Positions 21,613 to 52,992 of a stretch of DNA of 64,000 nucleotides are shown piece after piece. Both the position numbers and the translations under genes were made by a program. Source of the DNA: Botryllus schlosseri (Eukaryota); contig CM119372.1 in NCBI GenBank assembly GCA_051294905.1, positions 19,780,001-19,844,000 on the forward strand, read 5' to 3'. Position 1 is the first letter of the stretch, and every line of letters begins with the position of its first letter. Below the pieces are notes generated by a model, which saw only the letters and a list, made by a program, of their open reading frames with translations, was not told the origin of the DNA and made no database searches.

Positions 21613-24600
21613 ATGGCGGTTAGACAAGATGTCGTCGCATTACTGTCTGGACTTACGTTTATTATTTTTTTGCTTGGCATGATGTGGTTGTGGGGTGAGT
21701 AGGCTTGAAAGTGGAAGTGACTTTCCGCGTAGAGAGTGTAGAGTGGACTATGTTAATATTTGCTCGTTGTTTAGGAAACCTGGAAGGATGGCAAGCACTG
21801 TCTGGTTATACTCACAACGCTTCTGATAACAGTCAAGAACGTCTTATGTCGGAGCCATATGGATGTGATGACGACTCAATACCAGGTCTATTAATCCCAT
21901 ATTGCAGTGACAGAGTACTTTAGCTCCCCCCGTGTGTGAGGCTGTCACAGCAGACCAGTAAAGTAGAAAGTAGTTTTGGGGTGGGTTTTTTCAGCCTTTT
22001 GAGTGATATGATCATATGTGCTGGGCGAAATAGCCCCGTGTATCATGGTGGCAGGATATGTATTCGAAAACTGCTCTATTAGTCACTTTTCGTTATCACG
22101 AATATAGATCTTGCAATAAAAACTTTTGATTTACTATACTAAATGTAAGCGACACCTCGATCCAATTTACTTTTCAAAACTGCTTACTTATTACTTTTCA
22201 AGACTATCATTTTAGAAGAAGTAGTTTTAGAACGACTTGTAAATCGCTACTTACACTTGTATTAGGTAAACATTTACGGCTCACTTCCACTTCTACTCAA
22301 GTAGTAATACTGACTACTTCACAATCTTTGATATCCTATACCATTTTGACCAGGACGTAGCGGGGCGGGTTGTACTTCTACTTGGTATTACTGGAAGCTA
22401 GCACCGAACGAGGCGACTGCTACCACGCGGGCAGTGGTTTGGCTCTTGTATTCACTCCATCAGATTTTCATATGGGGACTTATATATCGTGCACAACTTA
22501 CTGTAACTCAACAGCGAGATGCCGGAAATAACGATCCATACAGGTCGGTATGTAAGTGAACGTTCGTTATCAGTCTTGTTGTGTTGTTGTTGTTGTTGCC
22601 GCCACCTTGTGTTAACGATCTGTCGATGACAGAGGGCGGCCGCGGCATATTCTATAACTTCCTGTTCTGATGACCGGGACACTGACTTAAAAAGAAAAAA
22701 ATGTATAAACAATGTCGCTAGTCACTAGAGCTGTTGTCTATATTCTACTGTCACCAGGAGTACATTCATCATCGACGAATTTCGATGGGTTGGTTTTATA
22801 GGGAGTAAGTTCAAGAAACAAAAGAAGTGAACAGTAACCAATATTCACGTACATCCCGAAAATTCATAAAAATAGTTGTAACCTCTCGCGAAGCCCATTT
22901 TCAACTCCATCCGCATTACACCCGCAACATCCTTCAGTCTCATGACTCATCCATCCACTCACTCGCTAACTCGATTACGCGTATTTCCGCACACGATCAC
23001 TGACTCACTTACTCACAACGAACCGCGAATGTGGGAGGCATATACCTAGAGCAGGGGTCGGGAACCTTTTTCGATCGAAGAGCCATATTGGCCCGATATT
23101 TTCAATTGTAACTCCCAGAGAGCCATACATGTCAATCAACCGTTACGTAACAATTGAAAATCCGTGACTTATGGGTAGCACTATAGTCTATGGCAGTGGT
23201 TCCCAACCGGGGGGGATTTTGAAATTTTTAGGGGGGAATCTTGCCTAATTTTTTTAGGGTAAATCTGGCTTGGGCATTGTATCGGAAGATACACTGGGTT
23301 CACAAGATTTTTAGATTTTTATGGTATACAACTGTTAAGTAGAAATTGGTTCTTTAGAATTGTATGTTTCTTTGGCGGATTTCAAGCTAGGTGTATATGT
23401 TTAAATGCCTTCCGTATATATTACACCCGATTTGGTGGTCTTTCAGGTATAGATTGTGGTCATGAGGTGGTGTTTCAGGTATATAGGCTGCGGCGGTGTG
23501 GTGAGAACGCATGGTCGCTCATGAGATGACCTTTCAGGTATATAGGCTGTAATCCTTTGCACAGCAGTGGTAAATCATACAACGAATGTGTTTTTCGAAT
23601 GGAATTGTTGTTAAGCGTCAAGTATATATGTTGATTAAAGCCTACAATAAAACATCTCAATCGTAATCCAATTAAAACCACGAATCTATTTCCATCTTCT
23701 CACAAACTGCCGCCGTACAGAAATAATAAATTTTCTTTCTCCAACACCAAATTATACTTGTCACCAATCGTTTTCATGGAACACGAGACTCAAGCAACTT
23801 ATTTACTTGCTGCGACATGAATTCCGATTTTGTTTTGCAAATAGTTTCTAATTATTTTTAATAGTATTAACACTAATCACGTGACTGTTTTCGATACTTA
23901 ATACATATACAACACGATGTCGGCGATGCCTATACCTGAAATCACCACCACACCCATAAGAATCCACGTAATCCACGGTCATCACCACAGCCTATACCAG
24001 AAAAGGTCATCTCATGAGCGTTGTTACCACACCGCCGCAACCTATACCTGAAACACCACCTCATGACAACAACGTATACCTGAAAGACCACCTCACCGCC
24101 ACAGTCTATACCTGAAACACCACCTCATGACAACAACGTATACCTGAAAGACCACCTCACCGCCACAGTCTATACCTGAAACACCACCTCATGACCACAG
24201 CCTATACCTGAAACACCACCTCATCACCTCCGGTTTCCAGAAAATGGCGCACCACCTCACCGCCGCACCCATAAGAGCCAACGCAGGCTATACCTCAAAC
24301 ACCACCTCATGACCACAGCCTATTCCTGAAACACCACCTCATCGCCCCGAGTTTTCAGAAAATAGCACACCACCTCACCGCCGCACCCATAAGAGGTCAT
24401 GTTAGTGTTCCACCGATTACATATACTATACTCACGGTGTACGTTGAGCCGCCAATACAGCAGTACATTCACACTGCAGCGTGTGATAGGTCAGTGGCGT
24501 GCGATTAGGGGAGGGCAAGCTGGGGGGGCAAGTTGTTGCACATGTCGTCAGGGATGAATGAAGTAAAATTGTGAAACCGTCAATAATTATTGGTATTTTC

Positions 24601-27600
24601 TATCGATGTTTTTTTTTCTAAATTTTGAACATTTCTATTCCCAAAATCACGGAATTTTTATATTTATTGTTCGAAAATGAAGCGCGAAAGGAGAGGCAAG
24701 GCACAGATGAGGTACAGACAGGCCAAACATCACCTGCGATAGCGCAACTCATCGTAGATGGTCTAGTATGTATAATCACTAACATTAATCCAATGTAATT
24801 GTCACGCTGATTCCGAAATTCTACATATCGATCGACTTCTAAAGTATTCGGCGTAATATAACGTTGCGCTACACACCTACATTTTACGGCGGTGCTCGAA
24901 AGCTACTTACTAAACAAGAACATGGATAGCTATGGCGGTGTTTTGAATGTGAATTTGTAATTGTGAATGTCACTTCCAAGGCAGTTAAATTCGCGAGGTA
25001 GATCAGAAAGACAATGTGTATTTGAAAACTGCATTGTCTTACAAGCGTCGCCATGTCTGCTATTCTCTTTGATCAATCAAGGTATCGTACAATCCCAGAT
25101 TTCAAGGCGCGCGATGGCGGGTAGATCGAATTCGCGAGCGGTGTTAGTCGCTGGCGTCGACAGTAACTTAAATTTGGGGGTTTTGAAAGGGGGGTACGAG
25201 CCCCCAACCCTGGATACTCCACTGCTATGACCATTCACAGACATGTTTATGCTGCCTCGACAATAATTATTCTGTCCGTCATGAAAATTGACTAACAAGT
25301 TGTTGCAATATTGCTAAATTGAGTACAAAATTAAAAATTATACCATAAAGAGCCATATATGGCTCGCGAGCCATAGGTTCCCGACCACTGACCTAGAGTA
25401 TTGATAGAACATGGAAAAAGAATTTTTGAAAAATATATCGGTCGTCTGCAATGGAATAATCTTAAAGGACAGTGCGAACGCGTTGCAAGAGCAGGGTGAT
25501 AGGAATGTGTCAATTAATAAATGATGCGTCTGCAAAAGATGAATTTCACATCTTCAATCGGGAGAAATATTGGGTTAAAATGGGAAGATAGTAGCGAAAA
25601 TCACTAAAATACGCATGTTCGGACTTTGCACCGGAATATTTTGGACTCAATTTATTCAATAACCGAAAAATATTTGCTGGCTTCACGCTCTTCACCTTTC
25701 GGTATTCACGTGATTGTTATGCGCAGTTGGATATTAAACTTTAGTGATAAGTCACGCCTTCCGCGTTATCAATTATTAACAAGATATTTGGCTTTGCAAC
25801 ACAACTGATAGAAAGTATATGTCCGGACATCAAGTCTGGGGTATGTTTGGAGTATGTTGGTACTGTTTTGCGACCCGGACATCATGTTTGGGGCATTGGC
25901 GTAGCCAGGAGGGAACCAGAGGGGACTTTTCGTAAATTAATATAAGTTAGAGTATGTTTTAGCAGATGTACTCAACTTGTAATTTTTCTTCGCGCTTCGC
26001 GCGATATATAGTTTTTTGATTGCTGAGTACTCGTCTCTCGATAAATCAAAATAAAAAATGGGCTTGATGTACAGAATTGAATCTCTGCATCCGTGTGTGC
26101 TGCCTGCCGTTGCGGAACTATTAAGAACCAACTTATCAGCGCCAAAAAGACAATTAAGTCAGATAGGTTTAGCTAACACTAATTGCGATCCCAGAAAGAT
26201 CGCCGGCGATAGAACCTTGGTCGAAGACCGCGCGGGATGGCCCTGTCTATGCAGCCTGACAACCACCCCCTCCCCATTTGGGGGCGAACTCGAATGGGGG
26301 AAAAATTATTTCGTAAATAAACATAAATTCATGGAGTATTTTGGGTTTAACCATTAAACCTAAAATTATTCTTCGAGCTCCGCGAAGTACGTCATCCCCC
26401 CAGATAAATAATTCAGGTTAATATAGAAATAGGCATTTTGACACCTCATGTTAAATTGTCAGTTGTTCATATACGTGCCTAAATGGTCGCTACCGAATAG
26501 TCCTGTCTTTGCAATCTCAGAAAATGACACACCCCGTGATGAAATGTCAACTTGGAATCGTGTGTGTCTCACGAAAGACGTTCTTCTTTTTGTTCAGTCT
26601 AGTACATTTGTGCTATTACAATATCTTTAAATCATATAGAAGCTGGGAGGTCACGAAATAGGAACATGCAATACATCGATTAGTAACAACGCCCGCCCCC
26701 TCGTAGATGGATAATTACTTATTTGTATATCATTAACGTGCCCTAAACTTACGAAGATACCACCTCTCTTAGCGCTACCATTAAAACTGATCACTTGAGA
26801 AATTATATGATGTGCAATTACCAAGCCACCAGGAGTTCGGTCAATCGCCCTATGGCGTGCCCAAAACCAGTGCAAGTACAAATTGGCCAAATTCAACCAT
26901 AAAACTTTTAAAAATTCTCGCGATCAGCGCGGAAGTGGCGGTACACTGGTCAGCCTGGACATCATGTTTGGGGTGTGTTTAGAGTGTGTTGGTACTGAGT
27001 TGCAACCCGGACATCATGTCTGGGGTATGTTTGGCGTGTGTTGGTACTGCATTGAAATCCGGACATCATGTCTGGGGTATGCTCGGAGTGGGTTGGTACT
27101 GTGTTGCAACCCGGACATCATGTTTGGGGTGTGTTGGTACTGTGTTGCAACCATAGGATATCATGTCTGGGGTATATGTTTGGACTGTGTTGGTGCTACG
27201 TTGTCACACTTGAAGACACCCCATAGTTACCCTGGACAAGATATCCTATGTTCGGTATGCTCCTTATTGCCAAAATTAAGGCACCCTTTCAGAAAGTAGG
27301 AGTATTGAGCCATCTGCGAGTTGTGCCTGATCCGTGGTCCACCGTTTACATTGTGGTTTTTGTAATAGTCCGCTCGGTCCGCAGTTCTGATTGGTCCGCC
27401 GTTTGGTATTGCTCGTTCTGCCTGTTCCACGAGCCGCCCGCTCCGCCGTTTAGATTTGAGCTATTTCGTTATGGTCAGCTCGATCTGCAGTTCCGCTCGG
27501 TCCGCCGTTTAGTATTGCAAGTTCCGCCTGTTCCGCGATCCACTCGTTCCGCCGTTTAGACTTGAGCTATTTTGTTATGGTCCGCTCGGTCCGCTCCGCA

Positions 27601-29187
27601 GTTCCGCTAGGTCCGCTGTTTAGTATTACATGTTCTGCTGTTCCGCGATCCGCCGTTTAGAGTTGCCCGATCCCACCCCGATTCCTAACTTTCTTCTCAA
27701 GACTCTGATTCCGACTCAACAATTATGGTATAAACTGCCCCAATACAGCAACGTAACAAAAATAGTGAGATCTACATCTTCACAATTCAGCACGGAATTG
27801 AGATGGTTCAACTGGGGAATGCTGTTCGTCAATGGATTATTCCACGTGCTACATCTTGTCCAAACCCACACAACGTATGACGCTACTGCACAAGACGTCG
27901 CCATGTCTAGCTCTCAGGTTACTTTCGCTCTGCTCACTACTTGTAGTATAGAGTTCGAACTATGGCATTGACAGGACTATTTTTAGGCATCTGTCATCAT
28001 GATGATATGCTTCATTCTACTAATCGAGTATAGAAACCGGGGCTTGGTGTTGATGTGGCCAAATCAAGAATCTACAGGAACAATCACAAACAAACTGCGA
28101 CTGAATCCCGGGCCTCTCCAGCTGGTTAGAAAGTATGGCAGGACTATATGCATGTAGATCATCGCACTGTTATTATAACTTTTCCACAATTAGATATCAC
28201 GGGTATGCATTCGCCTGGGCGTGCATCTATACCTTCTGGTACCATCCGATGGAAAATACTTGGGGTCATACACTTGGATTTTTTCATACCGCGATCGTGC
28301 TACTACAAGGCAGTCTCGCTTTTACAGAAATACATCTGAACAGGTAGTATATGATATTCTGATATGTATTCTGTATTCTGATGTATCTATGACATTTTGA
28401 AGATATTGGCGTCTGCTGAATGAGTGTTGGGTGTTCTTTCACGCGACCACAATCGCTATTCAAACGGGAAACCCAGAATTGCCAAGCAGAAGCGATTTAT
28501 GGCCGATATTCACTTTTGGATTCGGATTTATGCTTGCTTTCACTCAGGTACACAACGTAGCAATATAGTGCCACTATTTTGGTATGCTGTTTATCCATCA
28601 TCTTATTTCAATCGCAGATATTTAATCTTCCATTCTGGAAAAAGATTTCCGCTTGGTTCCGGGTATTACCACCGATCCTGTTTCTGTCCAGCGTGATAGC
28701 ACTATGTGCAACAATAGTTGCGGGCAGAGATGGTGCCAGCGGGTTTTCAAGGATGCTGGACATGATCTTCATACCATCTCAAATCTACCTACAAGCGATT
28801 CTGTCGTGGTTCTTTCTGTACATATTCATACGAATCCAATCATGCTTGAAGCCCGAAAACATGAGTGATGATTCTGGCAAAAGTTCGAAAACTTATGTGC
28901 ACTCCTCCCCAATTAAACAAACTTTATATTTATGCGGTTCTATGGTAATTTATGCGTTAATGATACTTGGATCGTTCCTCTTCGAGAAAGCTGATTTGAC
29001 TTACAATTTAACAAACGCTATGATTCTTTTTACCGCTATATTTTCACTTGGTGCTTGTATCGGCATGATGTTCCTGGAACAACTAATAGGACAAGCAAAA
29101 CCTATTTGCAAGAATAGGAGTAATAAAGTAGAAGATTCATTTAGTGAAGAGTTTGACAACAAAGCATTTGAAGGAGAGAAATTATAG
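21613..29187 (+). CDS. Uncharacterised His-rich multi-pass membrane protein, paralog A (506 aa)
   Basis: Exons 21613-21694, 21775-21885, 22354-22543, 27791-27917, 27987-28132, 28194-28343, 28403-28547, 28618-29187 (1521 nt, open frame, all GT..AG). Starts MAVRQDVVALLSGLTFIIFLLGMMWLWG; exon-by-exon homology to paralog B. Confidence 0.9.
23052..25390 (-). mobile_element. Charlie-like MITE expanded by nested insertions, in intron 3 of paralog A
   Basis: caggggtcgggaacct / aggttcccgaccactg; perfect TSD ACCTAGAG; reverse-strand homology to 4563-5695. Confidence 0.85.
23433..24392. repeat. Fold-back-like arrangement of a ~29-bp minisatellite (TATACCTGAAACACCACCTCA core)
   Basis: Tandem array ~23986-24392 with inverted copies at 23433-23550. 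Confidence 0.8.
26956..27203 (+). repeat. ~52-bp minisatellite (ccggacatcatgtytggggtrtgtttggagtgtgttggtactg..), about 5 units, plus ~1.3 units at 25823-25893
   Basis: Direct visual alignment of units. Confidence 0.85.
27330..27665 (+). repeat. GC-rich compound tandem repeat (TCCGC core, ~110-bp higher-order unit x3)
   Basis: Recurring ccgctcggtccgc / ccgccgtttag / ttgagctattt.gttatggtc. Confidence 0.75.
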
Positions 29188-30540
29188 GCAATACTTCTTC
29201 GCTTTTCGTTCACGTGCATTTATTCTATGCTTTTGTTGTACATTTATATGATGCTATAAATACAAATACTTTATTTGAAGCTTAAATATCTGGTATGTTG
29301 ATTATCTGGACAGAAAACGTATTCAGGCACTGTTAGGGATCCATTTACCGATAATATTAATATCATTATCGTCAACTATACCAAATGCCACGAATCCCAG
29401 CAGCTGGTAACCTGATTACATCGACCGACTCTAATTAATTATATTATTGAATTATATTGAATAATTTGAAAATATATTGAAGTCCGCGGATCAGAAGCCC
29501 GTCAGTCCAATGTTTTCAGAAGGCTTATATCCGGATTATGCAATCAGATCCAGATCCAACTTTTCAGCAACATTTTGACGTTACATAACGGACCCTGGGT
29601 CGAAAATTATGTTCGTAAATTATTGTAACCCAATAAGTGACACCTATAAAAACATAGCTGGCTCAGGACTTTTGGTTTGATGCCAGCACCATTACTTCCC
29701 CCTGTGGCCTTGCAATAACTCAATGCCGAGTCAACACACAAAGAGACTCAAGTCGAATCGAAATATTAACCATATCTAAAAACGACTTGAGACAAGCAGA
29801 CTCATCCAAGAATGGCGACTCGAGTCATTACAACCGTGGCCTGCTGGACTGCATAGACATGGTGTCCAATGGAAATATGAAATTCGTCAAACCGGGAAAA
29901 CCAATTAGTAAAATTAATGATTGTGATGTTGAGGCTAATACTGGTTACGTAACAATCGGAAGATTTACGCAAGTACGGCTAGCCGACTATACAGGGTAAT
30001 GAGGGTATTGAGATGGCGAGTATAGGAGCCTATGTATAGATATACCTACAACACTTAGGATGAGATTATGCTGCCAACCTGGCTTGAACCCCCACCTAAA
30101 ACTGTATAAAACTGTCTTCATTATTTAGAAATACCGATTATATTGAATTTTATTAATATTTATAGTGATTTATATTGCGACAGAGCTGTTTTTATTTCGC
30201 AGATAATGCTCAAACAGGAGATTATATTCAAAATAACCGCGGTTTATCTCCAAAACCAGAGCCAATTTCAAATAACTGACGCCATACTTATAGATTCAGT
30301 GCCCCCCCCTTCACGACTCAAAAGCACATTTCCTTGGCCTGCTTCAAAATATGTGCTGACCGGCAAAGTTAGTCATAGTAGCAAAGGTCACCGTAACTGC
30401 AGGCCAACAATGGTTGCGTATATATAATTTTTGCATTTGTATTGTAGTACAATATTACCAATACCTGCAGAAGTTTACCAAAAAAGAATTGCCATAATGT
30501 AAAGACATCGCCTTCAAATGATACATAAATATCTGACTAC

Positions 30541-31967
30541 AGAAATTTAGAGGCTCACGTTCACAAACGAACCTTGGTAGGTTCTGCACTGTGAACCTTT
30601 TTCATATATTACAATGTTCACTCCATTATAACATATTTGGTTGAAATTTATTGCATTTCAACTGCGGGCCACTCTATGCATGGCGCTGGAAGCGTAAAAA
30701 ACCAACAATAAACGAGCATGCATCTTGACATTCTCAAAAATTTTACTTGCTTTGGTACAAAAGTCTGCACGAAATATCCAGCTTTCCGTTTGTTAATATT
30801 TAGAGACTCTATGGTGTGAGATTGAACCGCATAATCAGACATCATCAATAGCGAAATAACCAACATGTAGGACGTAGGTAGTCAGTGAATGATGCTTATT
30901 CAACCAATCAAATTGATATCGTTGTCTGATGTAAAAAATCTAGCAGGCGTACGGGGAAAATCTTGACTTCATATATTTATTGTATCGTAAAATCCAAATC
31001 CGTGCGATTGGGGTGTTAGCTACTGCTGTATAACTTGTTAACGGGGTGATTCTCGTATAATTCCGTATGTGGTTGAATTTCTTTCATCGTGTAACGGCTA
31101 TTTGTAACTTCAGTGTCTTAGGCTATTCTGTTATTTGATCGTTTTAACTCCATTCTGAAATCTGTCATTATTTCATAAGACCTCCTCGTATCGTCGAGGT
31201 GCAAAGGCCGTCCGGCGATAAGCGCCTCATCTTTTTGTTTAATAAACAACAACAACAACAACAACAACAGCATCGGTACCAAGTATAGACACCCGTTTTA
31301 CACTCTGCTTAATATCAACGTAGCAATACTCCGGTCCGGTCCGGTTTTAAGTAAATATTATATCGTTTTATTGCCGCAGTTGATTAGGATTACCATATTT
31401 TGGGATCGGGAAAGGAGGACACTTGGTCAACATTTTCAAACTACGGAAATCCTGAAAAAATGGTCAATTTTTTACCAGTGGTACGTCTGTTGATTAAAAA
31501 AAGGTCAACTTTCCGGCTCAGCTCCCGAAATACCCGCCGGAGCGTTACTTCGGTGCTGATTTACGGTATCTCAGTCGAATTTGGCCGTAAATGTGACCAA
31601 AATTCTGAAAAAGAGGACAAAATCTCAAAAAGGACGACATCTAGGCGTCCTCGGAGGAGATATTCAAAAAACCTAAAAAGGAGGACAAATCGTCCTAAAG
31701 GAGGACGTATGGTAACCCTACAGTTGATACATTTGACAACGTTTAAAACGTCAATATGTTTTTCAGCATTGTCACATTATGTGGCCCGAGTCGTCCCTAG
31801 ACGTGCATACATTAATATAGGCTATCACTTCACTGAAATGTGGGGTTGGAATTGGCAATATGACGTCACGTGACGTCATGAGGTTCACGGTCGCGTTCAC
31901 ACAGAAATTTTCAAAAAGGTTCACGTTCACACGAGCCTGAACCTTTCAGAGGTTCACGCCATCACTG
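30541..31967 (+). mobile_element. Ac-like MITE, left-truncated, with a nested retroposon 3' end (~31050-31268, (AAC)n tail) and a nested MITE
   Basis: Homologous to 18640-19567; ends ggttcacgccatcactg. Confidence 0.8.
31385..31720. mobile_element. hAT-like MITE (TAGGGTTACCATA-type TIR, GAGGAC repeats)
   Basis: taggattaccata / tatggtaacccta; perfect TSD CAGTTGAT. Confidence 0.88.
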
Positions 31968-36872: not shown

Positions 36873-39191
36873 TTCTTAACCGGGGGTCTGCGGACCCCTG
36901 GAAGTCCGCGAAGCATTTTTAGGGGGTCAGCAAAGCCTCAAAATAGTTGATAAATTAATTTGTATTTTTGTAAGTAGGAAAATCACGAGGCAGTTTCGCT
37001 TCATTACTAGTAAAATTCCAGATCTCACATTAACAGAATGACCATCTGAGGCGAAATATCCTACTGTGCAGACTCATTTTAATTGCAAAATTGCCAATAG
37101 CCAACCCGAGCCAACTGATACAAACATTTTGCTGTTTAGAGATGTTTTGTTGGGGATTGTGGAAATAAATTTGGATGAATAACGTCGGTCACGGTGACTA
37201 AGATATGTGTACAAAATCCATTTTCTCCTGTGATATGCACAACCATTTTCCGTAATAACTTAAAGATAAGCTGCTGGATAGAAACGACCGGGCTGGACGT
37301 TATATGTTCATTAAAAAAATTATTTGACAATTTTGGTGCCATGTTTGTTGAGATCTTACCCAAATGTGTCTTATAGGAAGCGTCGAGGCCCCGGAAGCGT
37401 TATGCGTTATTGTTGCATTTTTTACAACCTATAGATTTGTTAGAATGGATTTTCGGCACTCGTTCATATCAAATCGAATGCGCGTATTTATAAGACACAA
37501 CCACGTATTTCGAGAAATGCAGCTGCAGAGTTTGCTTTAAAATAATAGAATTCAACCCAATTCGTACATAAAATAGTACGATCATATTTTCAAGAAAGGA
37601 CATTTCTTTGTTGTAATATCACAGAGCCTACACGCAGTTGTCATTTGCATTAGACAGATGACGATCGCACGATAATTGATGTAAATTTTAACTTCGTGGT
37701 GGTCCGCGGGGTCCGTGACGGCCCGAAAGTGGTCCGCGAAGACAAATAGGTCTAGGCGGTTTTTCACTGAACACAAATCAGTTATGTAATGTGCCAACTA
37801 CAGATAAAACGCTATAGCAAGATGTATCCATGTTTATATACTATTTTGCGTCATGTAGAAGCCGACCTCATGCTAAAGCGGTTAAGTTACTGATATGTGT
37901 ATCGTCGGTTGCAAGACTATTTGTCCAAATCAGTGGTTCCCAACCATTTTTGGTGTCACGGACCCCTTCAGAGAAAGTACTGATTCTGCGGACTCCTGCC
38001 TAAATTTTACTTGAACTGAAACTCAATGAACTTACTATTGACTATTCTAATAATAATCAGGACCGATACAGCATTTCGTCAGCCCCCCCCCCCCCCCCGC
38101 TTTTTGTTATCAGTAATATCTGATAGCAGAAGGTTTGTGCCTCGGTTGCTGAAACAAAAGTCTGGCATCTACAACATGTAGTATAATTGTTATCGCGCAG
38201 TCTGCACCTGTGTAGCATGTGTGGCTCGCACAGCGCGTTACCAACCGTCGCTGACGGAAATCGCCTAACTATACGATGTAAGTGTCACTCCCGCACGAAA
38301 AGGAGTATCGTGATGGTTTGTTTTGATCGACAAAACCAAATGTCTGTCATTACATAATTTGATTTATAGTTTCCCAACAAAGGATATCTCAGATATTGAG
38401 TTGCGCGTAGCGGCGAAAAAGTTCAAGTTTCCCCAGCCTATTATCGCGACACTACCGACAGATATGTGCCTTTGCATGAAACTTGAAACGACATTTCCGA
38501 AAATAACCTGCCCTCGCGGTTAGTTGAACTTAAATGCGTATTCAATGTGTGGTAGTTGCCGCCGCCGATATGCCGATTTCCCTAAAACATGCACATTTTC
38601 TCTTACTAATCATATTTAAATGTAGGACTGGAGGGACTCGCGCTAAATGCGACGAAACTTTTCAAGTTGAATACATCCCCTGCAACAAACAACCAAGTAA
38701 ATAATTTTGGGGCCTCTTTTGACTACCCCCGATTGGGGGTTTGGGGTGCGACAGTAATACGGCCCAGGAAGATCGTATAACTCCGGTGTACTTCCGCTGT
38801 TCCACTCACGTCGCGAACTCAATGATCCAATCCCCGCATCCACTGTGTGATTGTGGTTTTAGTTCCAGTATGGCGAGGAATAATATAACCATCCTTCAAA
38901 CAATTACTTGGTGAATGGGATACTACAGAGAAGTTGAGGAAGGATATTTTAATATGCTAGCTGTACAATGTACATAATACGTTTTATATCTATGTCAGAA
39001 CATTAACTCCAATGATACAATCAATTCATGCTATACACTTACATTATGTACATGACTTCAAGGTCGGACATTTCAGACCGACTCCAAAGATTAATGTGCT
39101 GCGCTAAATCCTTAATCCATTACTATTCGATGCGTATACTTCCACAGTAAGTTGATAATTGATAATAAATTGCGATTGTGGCTATATTTAT

Positions 39192-41494
39192 TAGGGATGG
39201 TGCAAACACTTGAAAGGTTCAGGTTCGTGTGAACGCGAACCTTTTTGAAAGGTTCTTTGTGAACGCGAACGTGAACCTATGACGTCACGTGACGTCATAT
39301 AGCTAATTCCAAACCTACATTTCAGTGAAATGATATAATGCTGTAGAAGTGCACGATATCTAGCGACGACTCAGACCACATATGCCACAATGCTGAAGTA
39401 CATGCTGGCTTTTTAAACGTCGCCAAATGTATGAAATGGAGCAATCAAATGCTATAATAATCCCATAAAATTAATATTTTCCGTCTTCTTTAAGACAATT
39501 TTGACGAGAACTTGCAAGGGAATATCACCTTATGCCTAGGCCAGACAGGACAATGGATTCGGCGTTTGACTATTGCTATATTGATATTGAGCGGAGTATA
39601 AAACTGGCAGAGGTGGTCAAAGTAGTCAAGAAAGCTACTCAAGTAGAAGTAGAAGTGGCCACGAAAAAATCTACTCAAGTACGAGTAGCAGTACTTCTTC
39701 AATAAGCCACCTAAAACTACTTGAAGTAGAAGTAGATTTGACTGACTTTAAATCTACTCAAGTAAGTAAGTAGTTTTGAAAGCAGTCCTAATTCGTTCGC
39801 ATGGACCGCCAAAAGCTGCGAATTGAGCTATGCGGAAGGTGCAGAGAGCTTGATTCGTATTGATGCATCCCAGGAGGAGGTATTAATATTCGACGGATAA
39901 GCATTTTTTTCGCATCACGGGATGCGAATTATAGTATTGATATGAAAATGCGATACTAACCCTTTGTTTACTGGAAGAATATCATGACATGGCACCCTAC
40001 CTCATATTATAAGGCCCCAAGTTTAGGCGCAGAGCAATACGTAGAAGTTTTATCGTATACGGTTTCATCACTTTGCGCGATTAGTATACGTTAATAAAAA
40101 ATATTGTCGACCGTAAAAGTTATATTTAGTGTAGCTTTAGTTTCGGAAAATAGAGGCATTACTACACTTGCTTTTATGCTTCAACGTGTAGGCTATGTTC
40201 TGCAGACAAAAGAACTGCAAGTAATTAGAACTCAAAGTATGATACTCGCAATTGAAAGTGAAATACAAATACCACTTCTAAAATGCGGAAACTATATTTC
40301 ATGTTTTTCCATAAACCTTCAAAGGTGATCTGCTAAAACAGGTGTAACGTTCAAAACAGCTGGATTTTCCAGATTCGCAAGACACGTATTGGGCTGCTAG
40401 ATTACGATATGATTGGTAATTGCTAGATTGCGAAATGGTAGTTTCAAACGTTGTGGTGGGCCATCTCTACTGTGATGAAATATTTGATATGGGCGACAAT
40501 GCAGTGTGAGCGGAACCAAGCAATCCCGTAGCTAATTATATTATATTCCTGAAAACATATTTGTCACTTCATTACTACTGTGCACGAAGCGCAACAAAAT
40601 TTCTAGGCTTTACTTGACTTTTATGAATATTAAATGTTGGTACTCCGTGAAAACAGCCCCGAAATTCCTAAGGCTATCTTCCGTAGTGGGGGATTAAACT
40701 ACTTCTACTTGACAAACTGAAAATAGCGAAAAGTAAGTAAGTAGATCACAAAATATTACGAAGTAGAAGTAGAAGTAGAGAAAATCAGATCTACTTGAGT
40801 AAGTACCAGTAGTAGAGGAAAACTAGTTGAGTACTTCCAAAAAGTAGAAGTACTTCGTTACTGATCACCTCTGAAAACTGGTTTCTGTACTTGCTACCGA
40901 TATTACCCCATTGACAAGTTGTACAGCAGACAACACCTCAATCGCACGGATTTGGTTTTTATGCTGCAATAGACCAGGGATATATATATCCCTGCAATAG
41001 ACATATGAAATCAAGATGGATACGTACGCCTGCGGATTCTTTTACACCAGACAACGATGTATGTTTCATATCAATATCATTGATTAGTTGAATAAGCATC
41101 ATTCGCTGACTACCTACATATAGTGTATTTCGTTATTGATGTTGTGTGATTGCGGGTCAAGCTCACAGGAGGGAGTCACTAAATATTTACAAACGGAAAG
41201 CTAAATATTTCGAGAACATTTTTGTAATAACGCATGTAAAATTTTTGAGATCGGCAAGGTGTATGCTCGTTTATTGTTCATATTTTTTATGCTGCCAGCA
41301 CCATGCATAGAGTGGTCCGAAGTTGAAATGCAAAGAATTTCAACCAAAGATGCTACAATGACGCGAAAATTGTAATGTATGAAGAAGGTTCACAGTGCAG
41401 AACCTACGAAGGTTCGTTTCTGAACGTGAACCTCTAAATTTCCGAGATTCACACACTTAACGCGAACGTGAACCTCACGTTCACACCATCCCTA
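39192..41494 (-). mobile_element. hAT Ac-like MITE containing a CAGAGG element
   Basis: tagggatggtgcaaac..gttcacaccatcccta; reverse homology to 18580-19567; no matching TSD. Confidence 0.85.
39608..40873 (-). mobile_element. CAGAGG-terminus MITE, uninterrupted (1266 bp)
   Basis: cagaggtggtca / tgatcacctctg; perfect TSD AAAACTGG; reverse-complement homolog of 35599-36872. Confidence 0.9.
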
Positions 41495-42441
41495 CCAGGA
41501 AGTAGGAACACTGTAATGAATTTAACACGCAGTAGCCTGATCACTGTAGCTGCAGGCAAGAATGCCCCTTGCATATTCAGACATCGTCTTTACGGCGCCA
41601 CGTCATTTTTCAAATAATGTGACCCTAAAATTTTACATTCTGGCAATACTTTTGACCAAGGATATATAACTGATCTGAGTGCATATCGCCGGGCTATACA
41701 TACACAAACTTTTCAATATTGGATCCAGTCAATTGGGCCAAGGTAGCCTATCTTATTTGCTTCGAGTGAGTAATAGAGTTTCGACTTCTGGAACTTGAAA
41801 CCCGCGGTCTCAGGATAGGATAAAATCTATTGCAAGCAAGACGGCTGGCCTGGTCTATTTTCGTCTTTGTCATATGAACTTCACCCGTACTACGACCAGG
41901 TTTACAGACTGCCAGTCCTAGATTAATCTCAGGATATTAAAGAGTCTGTAGACAAATACTAATTGCTATCTCTTCAGTCTTCAAGTATAAATTATTTGAA
42001 GCACGTCAAAATCCTTCCTCATTCACAAGTATTTTTTTTTATGAATAAACACAAGATTTGCGGAATCTCGAAAAAAAAATTACACTTGAACACTAGGTCA
42101 ATTCAAAATACACTAGATCCAGTATAAAACACTAGGAGTTGCAACACTGATATCAGATAGGCCTATCTACATTAAAATGATTGAGAGCCTTATATAGGCA
42201 ATGTCATGACTTCTTCTTTGATTACTGTACTCTGAATAGTCATTGACTCAATGACATTTAGTAATACTGTGTATGACAACACAATCATTTTGGTTAGTCA
42301 ATGTACTTCCGGGTGGTGCAAAGAATAGGTGGTTTATTGTAAATATGCTTTATTGCCAACATGCTTCTGCTCTGTTATTAAATCATTGTTAATTTTGAAT
42401 AGACTTTAGACATTACAGTAGGCCTACTTCTAGCACAAATC

Positions 42442-45400
42442 ATGAAGATGCAACAGGATGTGGCGGCGCTACTTTCAGGACTGTGCTTGGTCCTGATCCT
42501 ATTAGGAATGTCATGGTTATGGGGTGAGCCATATCTGACGCCGTAGGCCTACCGGTATATAACGATTGATGTGAGCGGTCACCGGTCATAGATTTACAGG
42601 TGGTTGTGATAGTAGATCGGTTTTAATGCTCGCAGAATGCCTAATTAGTAATTACTATCGCGTTACGGAATTGCCTTTCTACAGGAGATCTTGCTGGATG
42701 GGAAGCGAGCTCCGGTTACACACACAATGATTCTGCCAACAGTCAAAACCGCTTAATGTCGGAACCGTACGAATGTGACGACGCAGAAATCTCTGGTAGT
42801 CACACCACACACTGTTTAGTACGCACTAACTGTGAACATTGATTAAAATACACGCTTATACCGTTGCACAGGACGCAGACGAGAAGGATGCACCGGTACT
42901 TGGTATTATTGGAAACTGCCACCGTCAGAAGCGACAGCCGTTACTCGGGCTGTTGTTTGGCTGATGTACTCTCTCCATCAGATATTCATCTGGGGATTAA
43001 TCTATCGAGCGCAGCTCACGGTGGCGAGACAGGCGTCGCAAGGAATTGTGGATCCTTACAGGTTGGTTTCGTACAGTCTTGAAATCTATGTGCCAAAAGT
43101 GTCTTTGTTACGTTCGTTCTTCTAAGCGTAGGAATCAATGCGACCGGAACTGTTAAGATTAAGAACTAACTAACTATAGTTGTATTTACTTGGCGCAGTT
43201 AGTTCTGGCTCTGGTTCCTGGCATTTATTACAATTTCATCATTTAATGTGGGGTTTGATCGGACTAGTTCATATCGTTTATTCTCATCGGATACCTAACA
43301 CTGTGTGTGTGTTTTTGTATCTCCAATGTCCAATATACAGTAGCGTTTCCCTATTTTTGCTAACGACGCCCTTTGAAAATTTATCAACACTACTAGCGGA
43401 ACCCTCTTGAATTCTATCTTTCGGAACTTTCCAGATAGGCCCTCACTACAAAGGAAATCACAATATTCACGTCACTCAAAATCATTTGCTAGCTAACCTT
43501 TGCGCGATCAGAGTTTATTTTAGAATAATTGTAGGGCGTCACCGATGAGTTTCACACATGTTCAAAGAACGCAGTTATATTGGATTTACATGATTGTGAC
43601 TGTGACTGATATCATTTTTAAAATCCATGACTTTTTTGCATACCGTATAATAATTACCGGAAACAGAATCTAAAACGAAAATGGCGGGCATGTCCGGGGA
43701 AATCAGAAAGTATGGAGACAATTGCCTAACATTTTAAAGGTGTGCTGTATAAACCAATAGTAGTATTGTAATCTCTATTCCTTACAGTGGAAAACTTAGA
43801 TGGTTCAACTGGGGCATGCTGGCTGTAAATGGATTGTTTCACATTTTGCATCTGGTGCAAACCCACACTACGTACGATGGCCTGGCGCAAGATGTAACAA
43901 TCTCAAGCTCGCAGGTTAACTCATGTAGGCTACCTAATATAGTTTATCTGTGAATTTAATTAGAGAATGTATCTAAAGGAGGCCTCTCTTTTTCGAACCA
44001 ATGGAGCGATCTGAAGTTGACCACTAGGGATGGTGTGAACCTCTGAAAGGTTCAGGTTCGTGTGAACGTGAACCTTTTTGAAAGGTTCTGTGTGAACGCG
44101 AACGTGAACCTCATGACGTCACGTGACGTCATATTGCAAATTCCAACCCTACATTTCAGTGAAGTGATAGCCTATATTAACACTAGAACTACCGGAACTT
44201 CGAACTACCTAGAACTACCATGTGGCTTTTTTGACGCATGTTGAATCTTCTTCGATTAAATGCATTTACCGGAGCTAAGAATCAGCCCAAATCTCAACAA
44301 ACGGCATCAGAAACCGTTGTTTATTGCGCTCACATCTACTTGTAATATTTTACATACACCTTAGGTCAACACTTATAAAACAAATCGCCATTTTTTGGTG
44401 TAACATACAAGTGGTGCTCTGGTGCGCATTTGGTATTTGAGCAAGTTCTTTAAAAATTTAGAGTAGGTTCCAGATCCGCTTTAGCCACATCATCATTGTT
44501 GGTTATTGCTGACATATCATAAAGCTTATCAGATAAGATTTGCATAATTCAATTTTGCAACGAATCCACGATTTGCATATTTTTAGAGTATCGGCATTTT
44601 GGCAAGTAGACGATCATTCACATTCTAAGAAAACATGCACGGACCATCGTTGACTTGTTGGTACCCTCATAGAATACTGCCTTGCAACCTGACCAATAAT
44701 ATCCCCCTGGTTTTGTTTCGTTATAACATTTAACCGTCACTGGTTTCTTGTTTGTGTTGTTTCTGAAGGAAACAGTTACCTCAGGTTGCAGTGAACTCAA
44801 TATATATGTGTACAAATTTGATCTCTACACTGGCATCTCGCAGTTACGCTTATCAACAAGATGATAGCTTTTAAAAGTGTGGCTACTTGAAGCTGTCTGT
44901 GTTCCTTCTGGTCCTGGGTAGCTTCAAGCAACTTTTGACAATAGTGTCAACTGGGACTTCGTTTGTTTCTCGAAGCGTATATAGCCACATTCACGTAACA
45001 TTGTTTCGAGATGGATTACATCAGACTCTTCACATTACTATGATTGGCAAATGTATAGATTATGGAAGAGGTGTCCTGTCCTATCCTTGCCTATATATGA
45101 GACGCCCTTGTACAGATACTTGGTAGCAGCAGCGTCCACCATCTGACATTTTACCACAATTGTTTGCTGGCATTTCGACCATGTAATGAACGAAAACAAT
45201 ATTATCTTTATCGAATCCACACCTCTTTTTAATCCTTATGGCAATGGAAAGATCATGGCTTCCATAAATCTGTTCTTCGAGAGGGCCTGACTGAACATAA
45301 TGCACCCATGCCCTCAGCCCTCATATGCATTCAATTCACTAGATTCAGCTCACTCTACCCCCGAATATCCATCTCGTAGACCGGAGCAAAGACCCTTTGC

Positions 45401-48093
45401 CCTTGTACAACCCTAGTATATTAGTATGGACAATACAGATGTCGGCTTGGTCTAATGGTACATTTCAAATTTCATGTCCTGTAACACGCTGAGCTCCAGA
45501 AATATAATATTACAGAGCTTTGGTGACTTGGAACGAGGAAGATCCAGGGCCTTCTATTACAAGGGATGTTGGGGCTAACACAGTTAGACCAAGTCGATAT
45601 TAACAAAGTTCTGTTGTTACAAACGGCTTTTCTGCGTTTATCAGATACATTACCACTTTCAAGAATATGAAACTGCGATGCCTGAAGGTAGAAAAAAAGT
45701 GTAATGCGTCAAAAAAGCCACTCGGTAGTTCTAGGTAGTTCTGTGTATAACTTTTTTATTTGTACTAGATGAGTGATGAAAATCATAGGTAAGGTGGCCT
45801 ACATAAAATAAATAAAAGTCAAGAAGTTTCAGCAGAACAGCGTAAGATTTGACTGAATGCCAGCTCTTCAAAAATGAAAATGCGTCAAAAAAGCCACTTG
45901 ATCGTTCTAGTGTTAATGTATAGATTGTGCACGATGCCTAGCGACGACTCGGGCCACATAATGCCACAATACTGAAGTATTTATTGACGTTTTGAATCTC
46001 GCCAAATGTATCAACTGCGGCAATCAAATAATATGATGATCCCATGACATCAATATTTTCCGTCGCTTTGCCAACAATTTCGACGACGACTTGCAAGGAA
46101 TATTAAGCGTACGCCTCAACGGTCTGGGCCAGACCAAACAATGTATTCGGCGTCTGAGTATTGCTACGATGATACTGAGCAGAGTGTAAAACGGATTTCT
46201 ATATACTTGGTACCGATATTACCCCATTAACTATAGTTATACAGCTGTAGCCAACACCCCAATCGTACGGGTTTAGTTTCTATGATACAATATACATATG
46301 AAGTCAAGATTGACCTCGTACGCCTACTAGATTTTTTATATCAGACAACGATATCAATTTCATTGATTGCTTGAACTCCATGCTCGTCATGCTCCATGCT
46401 CGTTTAGTGTTGATTTTTTTACGCTGCCAGCGCCATGCATAGAGTGCCCCACATTTGAAATGCAATAGATTTTATACAAACATGTTATAATGAAGTGGAA
46501 AATTGTAATATATGAAAAGGTTCACAGTGCAGAACCTACCAAGGTTCGTTTGTGAACGTGAACCTCTAAATTACGGAGGTTCACACACAGAACGCGAACG
46601 TGAACCTCACGTTCACACCATCCCTATTGACCACCATTTCGTTCACTGGTATATGAAACATGCATTTGGGCGTCGTGCTGACATTGCATCTTGGACGTCG
46701 GATACATTTTCCTAAATATTAAAAATATTGTCTATATAAGTGAACCGGGAGAATTCACATTGTTAGAGATGACTTCAGATCTGTCATCGCGAACCTGTCG
46801 CGAGACTTGCAGAACAACATACCTACACTATTTCTAATATTCTTCTTTTCACTCTTCGAATAAGGCATCTGTGATCATGATGGTATGCTTCATTCTGCTT
46901 ATCGAGTACAGACACAGAGGGTTTGCCTTTATGTGGCCCAATGAGGAGTCAACAGGAGCAATAGCGAACAAGATTCGTCTTGATCAAGGTCCACTGAGGT
47001 TGATCAGAAAGTATGGCGATACTATATATGCAGCTATAGAAAGACTGATTACTGACTACACCACTTTATATCACAGATACCACGGTTACGCATTCTCATG
47101 GGCTTGCATTTACACTTTCTGGTATCATCCGATGGAAAACACATGGGGGCATACACTAGGATTCTTCCACACGGCAATAGTGCTTCTACAAGGGAGTCTC
47201 GCTTTCACGAAGATCCATCTGAACAGGTATATGAGTTTAGTCCTTTATGAATTGAACATTTACCAATAACATCAGTGTCCGTTTTCATATAGATATTGGA
47301 GACTTTTAAACGAATGTTGGGTATTGATACATGCAACCACGGTTGCTGTACAGACCGGAAATCCGGGAATATCCGCAAAGAGTGATCTTTGGCCCATATT
47401 TGCTTTTGGGTTCGGATTTGTGTTTGCATTCACACAGGTTTGGTTGACTATATACATGAAATCGCAATGTCCACATCCATTCACAGTAACACAAACTTGT
47501 CGCAGATTTTCAGTCTTCCCTTCTGGAGAAAAGTACCTGCCTGGTGTCGCGCGATACCGGCATTAATACACGTCACGACTGTGACGGCATTGTGTGGAAC
47601 AATAGTCCAAGGAAGGAACGGCTCAAGCAACGGATTCACGAGAATGATCGATATGTTTTTTATTCCGGCTCAAGAATACCTGCAAGCTATTTTATCGTGG
47701 TTTCTGCTGTATATGTTTATTCGTATTGTTTCATATATCAAAATGAAGTGCCGTGAAATGCGAAGCGGGGAACAGGAGGAGTCGGAGATCCACGAAGATC
47801 CATCTCCCGCAAAACAGGCTCTCCTAATTTGTCTGTCCGTTACAGTTTACGCTCTCCTGATATTCGGCTCTTACCTCTTTCAACAAGCGGACTACGAGTA
47901 TAACATGACTACAATCATGATTGCGTTCACCGCCCTGTTTTCTCTTGGCGCGTGCTTTGGGAAAATATTCATGCAAGAACTTTTGGAACGTACACACCCA
48001 CTGCAACCACAAAAGAGCAACAATAAAGTCGGGGGTTCTAAAAGCCATGAAAGATATGCGAGTGAAGCGTTTAGCGCAGGAATGGATTCATAA
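42442..48093 (+). CDS. Uncharacterised His-rich multi-pass membrane protein, paralog B (512 aa)
   Basis: Exons 42442-42523, 42685-42795, 42872-43061, 43788-43914, 46865-47010, 47077-47226, 47293-47437, 47506-48093 (1539 nt). Exons 1-7 have the same lengths as in paralog A (82/111/190/127/146/150/145). AATAAA at 48132. Confidence 0.92.
44181..45912 (-). mobile_element. Defective piggyBac transposon
   Basis: TTAA on both sides, TIR CACTAGAAC / GTTCTAGTG, subterminal inverted repeats gtggcttttttgacgca (~44222; inverted at ~45705 and ~45881). Confidence 0.88.
44590..45310 (-). pseudogene. piggyBac transposase remnant (frameshifted)
   Basis: Fragments EEQ..KKRCGF..HYM..MPA, MVDAAATKYLYKGVSYIGKD, ILSSLQP..KKPVTVKCYNETKPG/DIIGQVARQYSMRVPTSQRWSVHVF resemble the piggyBac DDD transposase blocks DEQL..RC.F.QYMP, DA.T.Y.....Y.GK and KP.....YN.TK.GVD..DQ....YS....TRRW. 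Confidence 0.8.
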
Positions 48094-52612: not shown

Positions 52613-52992
52613 AAAGTTAATAAAAAAGTATTATTTATAACTTTGCATATCAACCCTTTATATTGAATCTATTTTAGTCAATTCTATATTAAAGTTCTGT
52701 ACCTCCAAGAGTCTTTTCATACACTTATATATGATCGAGAATTCGCCAACTTCTTGATAATCCACGTTTGTTTGTGAAGGCAAAGTATGTGTGGTGCATC
52801 TATAATAACCCAAAGTTAAGGTTGAATTACAATGAACCATATTCTATCCAAATTGCTTTCAAGTGAGGATAATTTACAAGATGATCCGAGTAAAATGATT
52901 ATTCGATAGTCACTGTACCTTGTAAAAGTTCATAATTATTATCATTTTCTTATTCCTTATTTTCTTAGAAATTATAGTCAGAATTGCAAATC

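Follow-up and report, generated by a model that had tools for sequence, protein, structure and literature searches.

A tandem gene pair of Botryllus schlosseri belongs to an unnamed family of polytopic membrane proteins, candidate cytochrome b5-dependent oxidoreductases

Membrane enzymes of the desaturase/hydroxylase superfamily are recognized by three His boxes (HX3-4H, HX2-3HH and H/QX2-3HH) and are supplied with electrons by cytochrome b5, which is often fused to them. Two-haem cytochromes b are built otherwise, as a four-helix bundle in which two His pairs are borne on two helices with a spacing of 13-14 residues (complex III cytochrome b, NOX) or of 10 and 18 residues (NarI). Here we describe two genes, g1 and g2, that lie in tandem in a 64,000-nucleotide stretch of the Botryllus schlosseri genome (the window; C2:19780001-19844000, C2 being contig CM119372.1 of the 495.5 Mb assembly). 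An initial annotation made from the sequence alone had described their products as uncharacterised, bacterial-type, His-rich polytopic membrane proteins of unknown function. Comparative evidence now gives the family to which they belong a testable identity, that of a b5-dependent membrane redox enzyme tied in bacteria to the vitamin B12/CarH light response and to carotenoid gene clusters.

The family is sizeable and conserved (901 clusters at 50% identity recovered at E<=0.001, 275 at E<=1e-30), with ~40% identity in the core between animal and bacterial proteins, and it is without a name, a Pfam or NCBIfam model, or a solved structural relative. The proteins were rightly called uncharacterised, since no characterised family was matched in Pfam, NCBIfam, PDB or fold searches. 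Pfam gave nothing over its cut-off for 8 exon open reading frames (ORFs) of the window, 13 full-length homologues and the 71 members of the bacterial alignment, and at E<=10 no single family matched more than two of those 71; NCBIfam returned no family for 6 proteins. A search of the family profile against all PDB sequences yielded only GABA-B receptor rows (E 0.0022 at best, to 0.015), which we read as a chance helical match. AlphaFold2 predicted 12 long helices for P0001, the closest full-length homologue (pLDDT 85.9, pTM 0.88), in agreement with the 11-12 hydrophobic segments first counted, and 10 for the bacterial protein P0069 (pLDDT 94.6, pTM 0.90). With neither model did Foldseek find a PDB match at E<=0.001. 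Its weak rows, with scores at noise level, included complex III cytochrome b, SpNOX, STEAP1, cytochrome b561, the cytochromes b of quinol:fumarate reductase and hydrogenase, and a designed two-haem bundle; the recurrence of haem bundles among these matches to predicted models is a lead, not a result. The ESM Atlas listed only the family's own clusters, under the automatic name 'SERAC1-like', and a weak DUF5692 row at 0.76; for the sea urchin protein it had no structure and no usable named match. No publication on the family was found in a literature search whose coverage excluded ~1.7 million PMC articles and subscription journals. Among the matches listed there, those on LitR/CarH did not mention the family, and those to the SERAC1 label were to human SERAC1 or unrelated.

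Fusion proteins point to a redox function. A Cyt-b5 domain was found in eight of 32 family members longer than usual, at the N-terminus in seven and at the C-terminus in one, and in two of the eight it is accompanied by FAD_binding_6 and NAD_binding_1, that is by a b5 reductase, which completes an NADH-FAD-b5 chain. One of the fusions comes from the chytrid Nowakowskiella, another cluster has a EukProt member, and the fusion P0140 falls within the animal-type clade. Because b5 and b5 reductase are found fused to it, the core is expected to accept electrons, and the protein is probably a redox enzyme. A hydrophobic helix, TM0, is retained between b5 and the core in all seven N-terminal fusions, so the fused b5 would lie on the cytoplasmic side. 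A complex prediction of the P0140 b5 domain against the core with three haems scored 0.00; it had no controls and counts neither way.

The core itself carries a distinctive set of residues. All 32 invariant or near-invariant family residues are retained in both g1 and g2, and the motif chain noticed at the outset is therefore real. The epithet His-rich fails on composition, as g1 has 12 His (2.4%) and g2 has 16 (3.1%); what sets the proteins apart is seven invariant or nearly invariant His in membrane helices (H100, H149, H221, H236, H244, H266 and H282 in g1 numbering), together with the conserved acidic residues D158, E184, E239 and E276 in the helices of the core. Transmembrane helix 4 (TM4) bears H221 and H236, 15 residues apart, and TM6 bears H266 and H282, 16 residues apart. 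Judged by place in the sequence and by secondary structure, each of these pairs would have an inner and an outer member, in a geometry like that of the two-haem cytochromes b. A regular-expression scan of g1, g2 and a third paralogue, g3, found no HxxxH, HxxHH or HxxxHH and a single HxxxxH, at residue 149. Arg/Lys-rich loops join TM1-2, TM3-4 and TM5-6, and the TM0-TM1 loop of animal members carries N-x-S/T sequons. The positive-inside rule and these sequons together suggest that the N-terminus and any fused b5 are cytoplasmic and that the motifs WYYWKL, H..Q.H.(Y/W)YD..AQDV and FWYHPME..GH face outward.

We propose that the family comprises integral-membrane oxidoreductases that would take electrons from a cytochrome b5-type donor at the cytoplasmic face. 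The seven invariant His and four conserved acidic residues of the core helices would hold the redox centre(s), the His pattern being our reason for placing His-ligated centres within the membrane. In g1 the inner pair H221/H266 would lie at the cytoplasmic ends of TM4 and TM6, and the outer group would consist of H236, H244 and H282 plus H149 and H100, with E239 and D158. Two His-ligated centres, most simply b-haems, may then relay electrons across the membrane to a catalytic site at the outer face, where the substrate would be a lipophilic pigment or quinone. Such a two-centre relay is preferred because TM4 and TM6 each bear two His 15-16 residues apart; that both centres are haems is put forward tentatively. 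Taken as a whole, the proposal that these proteins form a new type of membrane oxidoreductase, fed by b5 and active on a lipophilic pigment or quinone, has, in our judgement, an even chance of being correct.

The bacterial setting was surveyed in 80 genome loci and a second set of 80 metagenome loci. A MerR regulator with a B12-binding domain, whose best NCBIfam match is CarH, occurs in 18 of the 80 genome loci and is directly adjacent to the family gene in seven. A short-chain dehydrogenase/reductase (SDR) is equally frequent (18/80) and lies immediately downstream in 11. Next come genes of the CrtI family (CrtI proper, CrtD-like and CrtO-like; 14/80), two clusters of alpha/beta hydrolases (11/80 and 6/80), major facilitator superfamily (MFS) transporters (10/80), TIGR01777 oxidoreductases (9/80), MenA over its equivalog cut-off (7/80), and photolyase, an AhpC-like protein and MoCoBD (6/80 each). 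Phytoene synthase, a lycopene-cyclase-domain protein, Staygreen, DUF1295 and cytochrome P450 were each found in 3/80, and a neighbouring gene matches the lycopene cyclase domain model TIGR03462. The order CarH (divergent), family gene, SDR, MFS and hydrolase recurs in both genome and metagenome loci. In the metagenome set CarH-like genes were seen in 8/80, Staygreen in 4/80 and parts of Mo-hydroxylases in ~8/80 (FAD_binding_5 in 5, Fer2_2 in 5 and MoCoBD in 3).

Co-occurrence was scored across genomes as well. Of 301 genomes sampled from the phylum of Dictyobacter, 28 were found to contain the family, and a CrtI-family match at E<=1e-40 was found in 26 of these 28 versus 116 of the 273 genomes without the family (odds ratio 17.6, p 1.2e-7 by a Fisher test uncorrected for phylogeny; the background count includes G266, a genome flagged as unpublished). 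Six of the genomes have the two genes no more than 6 kb apart. Because CarH, carotenoid, photolyase, SDR and MenA genes are its neighbours, we lean towards the view that the bacterial family belongs to a light-induced photoprotection and carotenoid gene set, acting in a pigment, quinone or photo-oxidative context; its role would be played in CarH/LitR light-induced clusters, often with an SDR next in line. The initial annotation's verdict of function unknown can thus be narrowed to a putative redox role, indicated by the b5 fusions, and to a likely light or pigment context in bacteria.

Staygreen, a family of Mg-dechelatases, was observed beside the family at seven loci (L003, L012, L026, L113, L149, L154 and L156), often with a photolyase and an AhpC-like gene. 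These neighbours occur in presumably non-phototrophic bacteria and hint that the same light regulon deals with chlorophyll or porphyrins.

In animals the substrate is harder to name. The animals that have retained the family live in the sea, feed largely on algae or particles and are known for dietary carotenoids in modified form, and in algae-eating marine invertebrates the likeliest job would be the oxidative modification of dietary carotenoid-like lipids. By analogy with the bacterial clusters, a carotenoid may be the animal substrate, a suggestion that we regard as doubtful. Bolder, and rather unlikely, is the idea that a structurally new transmembrane b5-fed haem/iron oxidoreductase is the missing pigment-processing enzyme both of light-stressed bacteria and of algae-eating marine invertebrates. 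Were it so, a candidate role would be ring hydroxylation as the opening step of a path to ketocarotenoids by a hydroxylase and an SDR, and another candidate, suggested by the Staygreen neighbours, would be a detoxifying oxidation of chlorophyll-derived pigments. Loss of the family from the vertebrate, arthropod and nematode lines would then agree with reports that birds, spider mites and shrimps use different, P450-based routes. A 2025 sea-cucumber paper states that echinoderms have no reported carotenoid ketolase (PMC12631484).

Several observations weigh against the proposal of a b5-fed enzyme acting on pigments or quinones. The bacterial context is heterogeneous: many loci have no light or pigment neighbour, Mo-hydroxylase subunits recur, and 23 of the 80 metagenome loci represent one syntenic marine block with TerB, PEBP, MsrB and lipopolysaccharide genes. 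The two sets of 80 loci and the 301 genomes are phylogenetically non-independent, for which the Fisher test makes no correction. The products of g1 and g2, like the other animal proteins, lack a fused b5. Animals do not make carotenoids, and the substrate of the animal genes is a guess, tied to pigments only by analogy and by the marine, algae-eating habit of the carriers. Finally, all b5 fusions to membrane enzymes known to us are those of non-haem di-iron enzymes, which favours the first of the alternatives considered below.

In the main rival view, unlikely in our estimation, the proteins are membrane oxygenases, desaturases or hydroxylases with a non-haem mono- or di-iron centre. They would resemble FADS, SCD, FA2H, CrtW or CrtZ in function but not in fold; cytochrome b5 would pass electrons straight to one catalytic metal site, leaving the other conserved His to bind substrate or support the structure. 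Fusions to b5, or to b5 reductase plus b5, are the classic architecture of such enzymes; the seven conserved His with E184, E239, E276 and D158 could furnish a site, and the carotenoid-cluster context with its downstream SDR fits a hydroxylase-then-dehydrogenase route to keto groups. The proteins nevertheless have no HxxHH or HxxxH box and only the one HxxxxH, they do not match FA_desaturase or FA_hydroxylase in Pfam, and in the predicted topology their His would be distributed between the two membrane faces, at distances too great for one metal centre.

Coupling to the quinone pool and non-redox roles are less likely. The former, quite improbable, would make the family a membrane electron-transfer subunit, either a quinone reductase or a quinol oxidase, which would link soluble dehydrogenases to the pool instead of modifying pigments and might keep the pool oxidised under light stress in analogy to PTOX, which supports carotenoid desaturation. 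CrtI-type desaturases need an electron acceptor, and MenA, the recurrent Mo-hydroxylase parts of both locus sets and the weak fold echoes of respiratory cytochrome b subunits all agree with such a role, but these adjacencies are seen in a minority of loci and the fold scores are at noise level. A single apparent fusion to Fer2/MoCoBD, the 753-aa bacterial protein P0339 and sole find of a search for longer bacterial forms, was rejected: its target part begins mid-protein and the TM6 His region is garbled, which is what a frameshifted gene-call read-through would look like, so it testifies to adjacency only. Very unlikely is a non-redox protein, either a metal-dependent intramembrane hydrolase of the CREST, PAQR or ceramidase kind or a transporter of lipophilic molecules: conserved His, Asp, Glu and Ser inside the helices of a polytopic protein, the frequent alpha/beta-hydrolase and MFS neighbours and a C-terminal Abhydrolase_5 fusion in one bacterial member speak for it, but eight b5 fusions, two of them with the complete NADH-FAD-b5 chain, would have no role in a hydrolase or carrier, and neither Pfam nor the fold-search rows listed showed PAQR, ceramidase or a transporter family. 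For CREST, PAQR and alkaline ceramidase, which gave no Pfam match, absence from that fold listing does not amount to exclusion.

The family is old and is shared by bacteria and eukaryotes. Bacterial relatives are encoded by 540 of 600 pattern hits on genome contigs and 570 of 600 on metagenome contigs, which, with the core identity given above, bears out the bacterial resemblance first noted; the best 80 bacterial genome loci are mostly from Chloroflexota and Deinococcales. Among animals, members were found in tunicates (Styela, Clavelina, Ciona, Oikopleura), amphioxus (three Branchiostoma entries, several paralogues), hemichordates (Saccoglossus, Ptychodera), echinoderms (all five class-level groups sampled, among them urchins, stars, cucumbers and a brittle star) and lophotrochozoans (the brachiopod Lingula, the annelid Owenia, the molluscs Patella, Haliotis and Liolophura, and the nemertean Tubulanus). 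Other eukaryotic members come from the diatom Triceratium and EukProt protists. The matches listed (86 rows in one search and the first 120 in another, with 79 weaker rows beyond them) include no name from vertebrates, arthropods, nematodes, cnidarians or sponges, in line with the early remark that no vertebrate gene was known to carry the motif; any orthologue from an animal should have ranked above the bacterial rows. The bacterial form has ~340 aa and 10 helices, and the eukaryotic forms add either a C-terminal membrane extension (animals, the diatom and other protists) or a fusion to cytochrome b5.

Phylogenies were computed with FastTree (156 rows) and as an IQ-TREE quick tree (103 rows), after near-identical cluster members and proteins falling short of the core (profile start >75 or end <300) had been dropped. 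The C-extended proteins, including the diatom and other protists, form one clade, with support of 99 in FastTree and 97 in the SH-like approximate likelihood ratio test of IQ-TREE. Within it 31 of the 32 animal rows cluster together (support 93), the long-branched Oikopleura being unresolved beside them, and tunicates (99), amphioxus (100), echinoderms plus hemichordates, and lophotrochozoans are recovered as groups. Protist rows, the diatom among them, surround the animals, and bacterial rows lie outside the C-extended clade. A second eukaryotic group, the b5-fused proteins with that of the chytrid, stands apart and adjoins a subset of the bacterial rows. Because the C-extended clade follows animal phylogeny, with protists around the animals and bacteria outside the clade, the tree indicates that the animal genes descend vertically within that clade, as an old family with repeated loss. 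Of the two origins offered by the initial annotation it was thus the second, an ancient family with patchy loss, that the trees upheld. The first, in which an ancestor of this animal lineage acquired the gene from a bacterium and introns came later, has the ~40% core identity and the lack of vertebrate, arthropod and nematode names among the listed matches to recommend it, but is most improbable when animals of at least seven phyla form one group that agrees with the species tree at the level of phyla and nest among protists that share the eukaryote-specific extension, and when g1 and g2 each have eight exons separated by canonical introns.

Alignment by tblastn to the homologues P0001/P0002 supplied the anchors of the gene models, which were completed by enumeration of GT/AG splice sites (Table 1). 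They recovered the same sizes, end coordinates and eight-exon structure that had been read for two intact paralogues. Exons 1-7 are of equal length in the two genes (82, 111, 190, 127, 146, 150 and 145 nt), and all 14 introns are GT..AG, with lengths of 80, 468, 5247, 69, 61, 59 and 70 nt in g1 and 161, 76, 726, 2950, 66, 66 and 68 nt in g2. Transcription was assessed in two raw RNA-seq runs (X18 and X22) and two Logan contig sets (X1 and X5). Spliced reads or contigs confirm five junctions, namely introns 5, 6 and 7 of g1 and introns 5 and 6 of g2, and a contig loose end in X5 reproduces the g1 exon 3/4 junction; introns 1, 2 and 4 of g1 and 1-4 and 7 of g2 are placed by homology and paralogy. 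Over the last exons, X18 depth is ~5-7 for g1 versus 0.3-1.9 for g2. The third paralogue was dismissed as the source of the g1 signal: over exons 6-8 the X1 contig mismatches g1 at 4 positions, where g3 differs at 64.

The two proteins are identical at 343 of 512 aligned positions, and their coding sequences (CDS) are 65.5% identical. Overall, the proportion of synonymous differences (pS) is 0.83, a saturated value, and that of nonsynonymous differences (pN) is 0.21; in the core (alignment positions 61-320) pN is 0.126 and pS 0.789. The exon 6 peptides differ by 2 residues, as the first reading of this exon had it, with synonymous changes in 23 of 49 codons, and the core of both proteins is under the strong purifying selection that was then supposed. 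The genes g1 and g2 are real, expressed and selectively maintained paralogues.

At least three intact family copies lie on this chromosome. The third, g3, is on the minus strand at C2 ~19441987-19446196 (locus L169, 1488-5697), ~334 kb before the window; it encodes 506 aa in the same eight exon lengths with all introns GT-AG, and its CDS is 93.2% identical to that of g1. A pseudogene fragment of exons 4-6 only, with several in-frame stops, lies ~30 kb from g3 at C2 ~19472672-19473243, also on the minus strand (L170, 4688-5241). The copies branch as (g2,(g1,g3)) with support 99, and in IQ-TREE their sister is a group of Styela proteins and the transcript P0001; because of this grouping, the three copies are taken as lineage-specific duplications.

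Table 1. Exons of g1 and g2 and other features of the window, in window coordinates
Feature	Position	Strand	Content and basis
g1, whole gene	21613..29187	+	8 exons, 506 aa; tblastn and splice-site enumeration
g1 exon 1	21613..21694	+	Start codon, N-terminal membrane helix TM0; donor GTGAGT; tblastn to P0001/P0002 and splice enumeration
g1 exon 2	21775..21885	+	Extracytoplasmic loop with N-x-S sequon (predicted); tblastn and splice enumeration
g1 exon 3	22354..22543	+	WYYWKL motif, TM1 with H100/Q101; exon 3/4 junction equals loose-end consensus of spliced X5 contig (at 43798)
g1 exon 4	27791..27917	+	TM2, H149, YD..AQDV loop; tblastn and splice enumeration
g1 exon 5	27987..28132	+	TM3, E184/R188/G189; joint 28132>28194 in 7 X18 reads and in X1 and X5 contigs
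g1 exon 6	28194..28343	+	TM4-TM5: YHGY, FWYHPME, GH; H221, H236, H244, H266; exon 7 joint (28343>28403) in 13 X18 reads
g1 exon 7	28403..28547	+	TM6-TM7, E276, H282; exon 8 joint (28547>28618) in 6 X18 and 5 X22 reads
g1 exon 8	28618..29187	+	Eukaryote-type C-terminal membrane extension, stop codon; RNA depth ~5-7 in X18
g2, whole gene	42442..48093	+	8 exons, 512 aa; tblastn and splice-site enumeration
g2 exon 1	42442..42523	+	Start codon; second in-frame ATG at 42448
g2 exon 2	42685..42795	+	tblastn and splice enumeration
g2 exon 3	42872..43061	+	Junction 43062/43788 preferred over an equal-scoring alternative, as it agrees with g1 by paralogy
g2 exon 4	43788..43914	+	tblastn and splice enumeration
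g2 exon 5	46865..47010	+	Joint 47010>47077 in 2 X18 reads and a spliced X5 contig
g2 exon 6	47077..47226	+	Joint to exon 7 (47226>47293) in 1 X18 read and an X5 contig
g2 exon 7	47293..47437	+	Gene-model search and splice enumeration
g2 exon 8	47506..48093	+	C-terminal extension, stop codon; X5 contig spans 47503-48099
Open frames upstream of g1	3601..3903; 7787..8077	+	Match GPS motif and 7tm_2 (secretin/adhesion GPCR)
Tandem arrays in g1 intron 3	24026..24395; 26957..27173; 27368..27654		Periods 32/64/118, 52/104 and 106 nt
High-copy repeats, g1-g2 interval	~30100..41500		X5 contig word depth hundreds to thousands
High-copy repeats, g2 intron 4	43400..46800		X5 contig word depth hundreds to thousands
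Open frames downstream of g2	52978..53370; 56349..56636; 63403..63999	+	Match IRF DNA-binding domain (two pieces) and IRF-3 association domain

The surroundings of the pair are those of animal DNA, with a GC content of 0.35-0.45 in the window. Upstream of g1, two open frames look like exons of an adhesion-GPCR-like gene (GPCR, G protein-coupled receptor). Downstream of g2 lies a gene for an interferon regulatory factor (IRF), which continues past the window end. The repetitive ORFs in g1 intron 3 are attributed to the tandem arrays there. In the two high-copy repeat regions many reads continue into unlike sequence, and joints connect 34.2-34.7 kb with 37.0-37.4 kb; at ~36.1-36.4 kb and 40.1-40.3 kb, ORFs on opposite strands encode nearly identical peptides. 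These repeats are probably transposon copies, some of them transcribed.

One label attached to the family in databases needs comment. With SERAC1 the family has in common only the automatic name 'Serine active site containing 1-like', found on UniRef and Atlas clusters. An 1182-aa gene model of Strongylocentrotus purpuratus (records P0238/P0239) joins the family gene to a neighbouring SERAC1-like gene, and a 576-aa 'protein SERAC1', whose Pfam hits are weak ones to DUF829 and ARM, clusters with the family only via this model. Pfam detected no alpha/beta-hydrolase domain in the g1 or g2 exons or in the 13 homologues. The 'SERAC1-like' name on bacterial and animal members, which is spreading through databases, thus seems to be an annotation artefact with the fused urchin model as its source.

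Among described systems, the b5-fused desaturases and hydroxylases (front-end desaturases, FA2H) come closest in kind. The family resembles them in its membrane location, conserved His, fusions to b5 (twice together with b5 reductase) and expected lipophilic substrate. That superfamily, however, has a four-helix transmembrane core with cytosolic His boxes, whereas the present proteins have 10-12 helices and His inside the helices over both membrane faces, and they share with it no profile match, HxxHH box or fold match; b5 is supplied by fusion in the eight long members, and the His boxes are missing from g1, g2 and g3. Nor did the family proteins match the carotenoid enzymes CruF/Caroten_synth, Blh/BCD or the CrtYcd-type lycopene cyclase in Pfam or NCBIfam. 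The family would accordingly be a structurally unrelated form of b5-dependent membrane oxidoreductase, an enzyme kind already known, and, if this is true, it would add a new fold to the few known among membrane oxygenases and electron carriers and offer a candidate enzyme for conversions of pigments or lipids that are still unassigned in tunicates, echinoderms, molluscs and amphioxus. A second likeness, by analogy only, is to CarF/PEDS1 (TMEM189), the plasmanylethanolamine desaturase of the Myxococcus light response, which is likewise a His-bearing membrane enzyme of a bacterial light pathway with animal homologues (PMC8156234). CarF is a member of the desaturase-like superfamily that vertebrates also have, whereas the family described here has no profile match to CarF and was not found under a vertebrate name among the matches listed. 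If the proposed function is borne out, the family would be a further case, like CarF/PEDS1, of a bacterial light regulon pointing to the function of an orphan animal gene.

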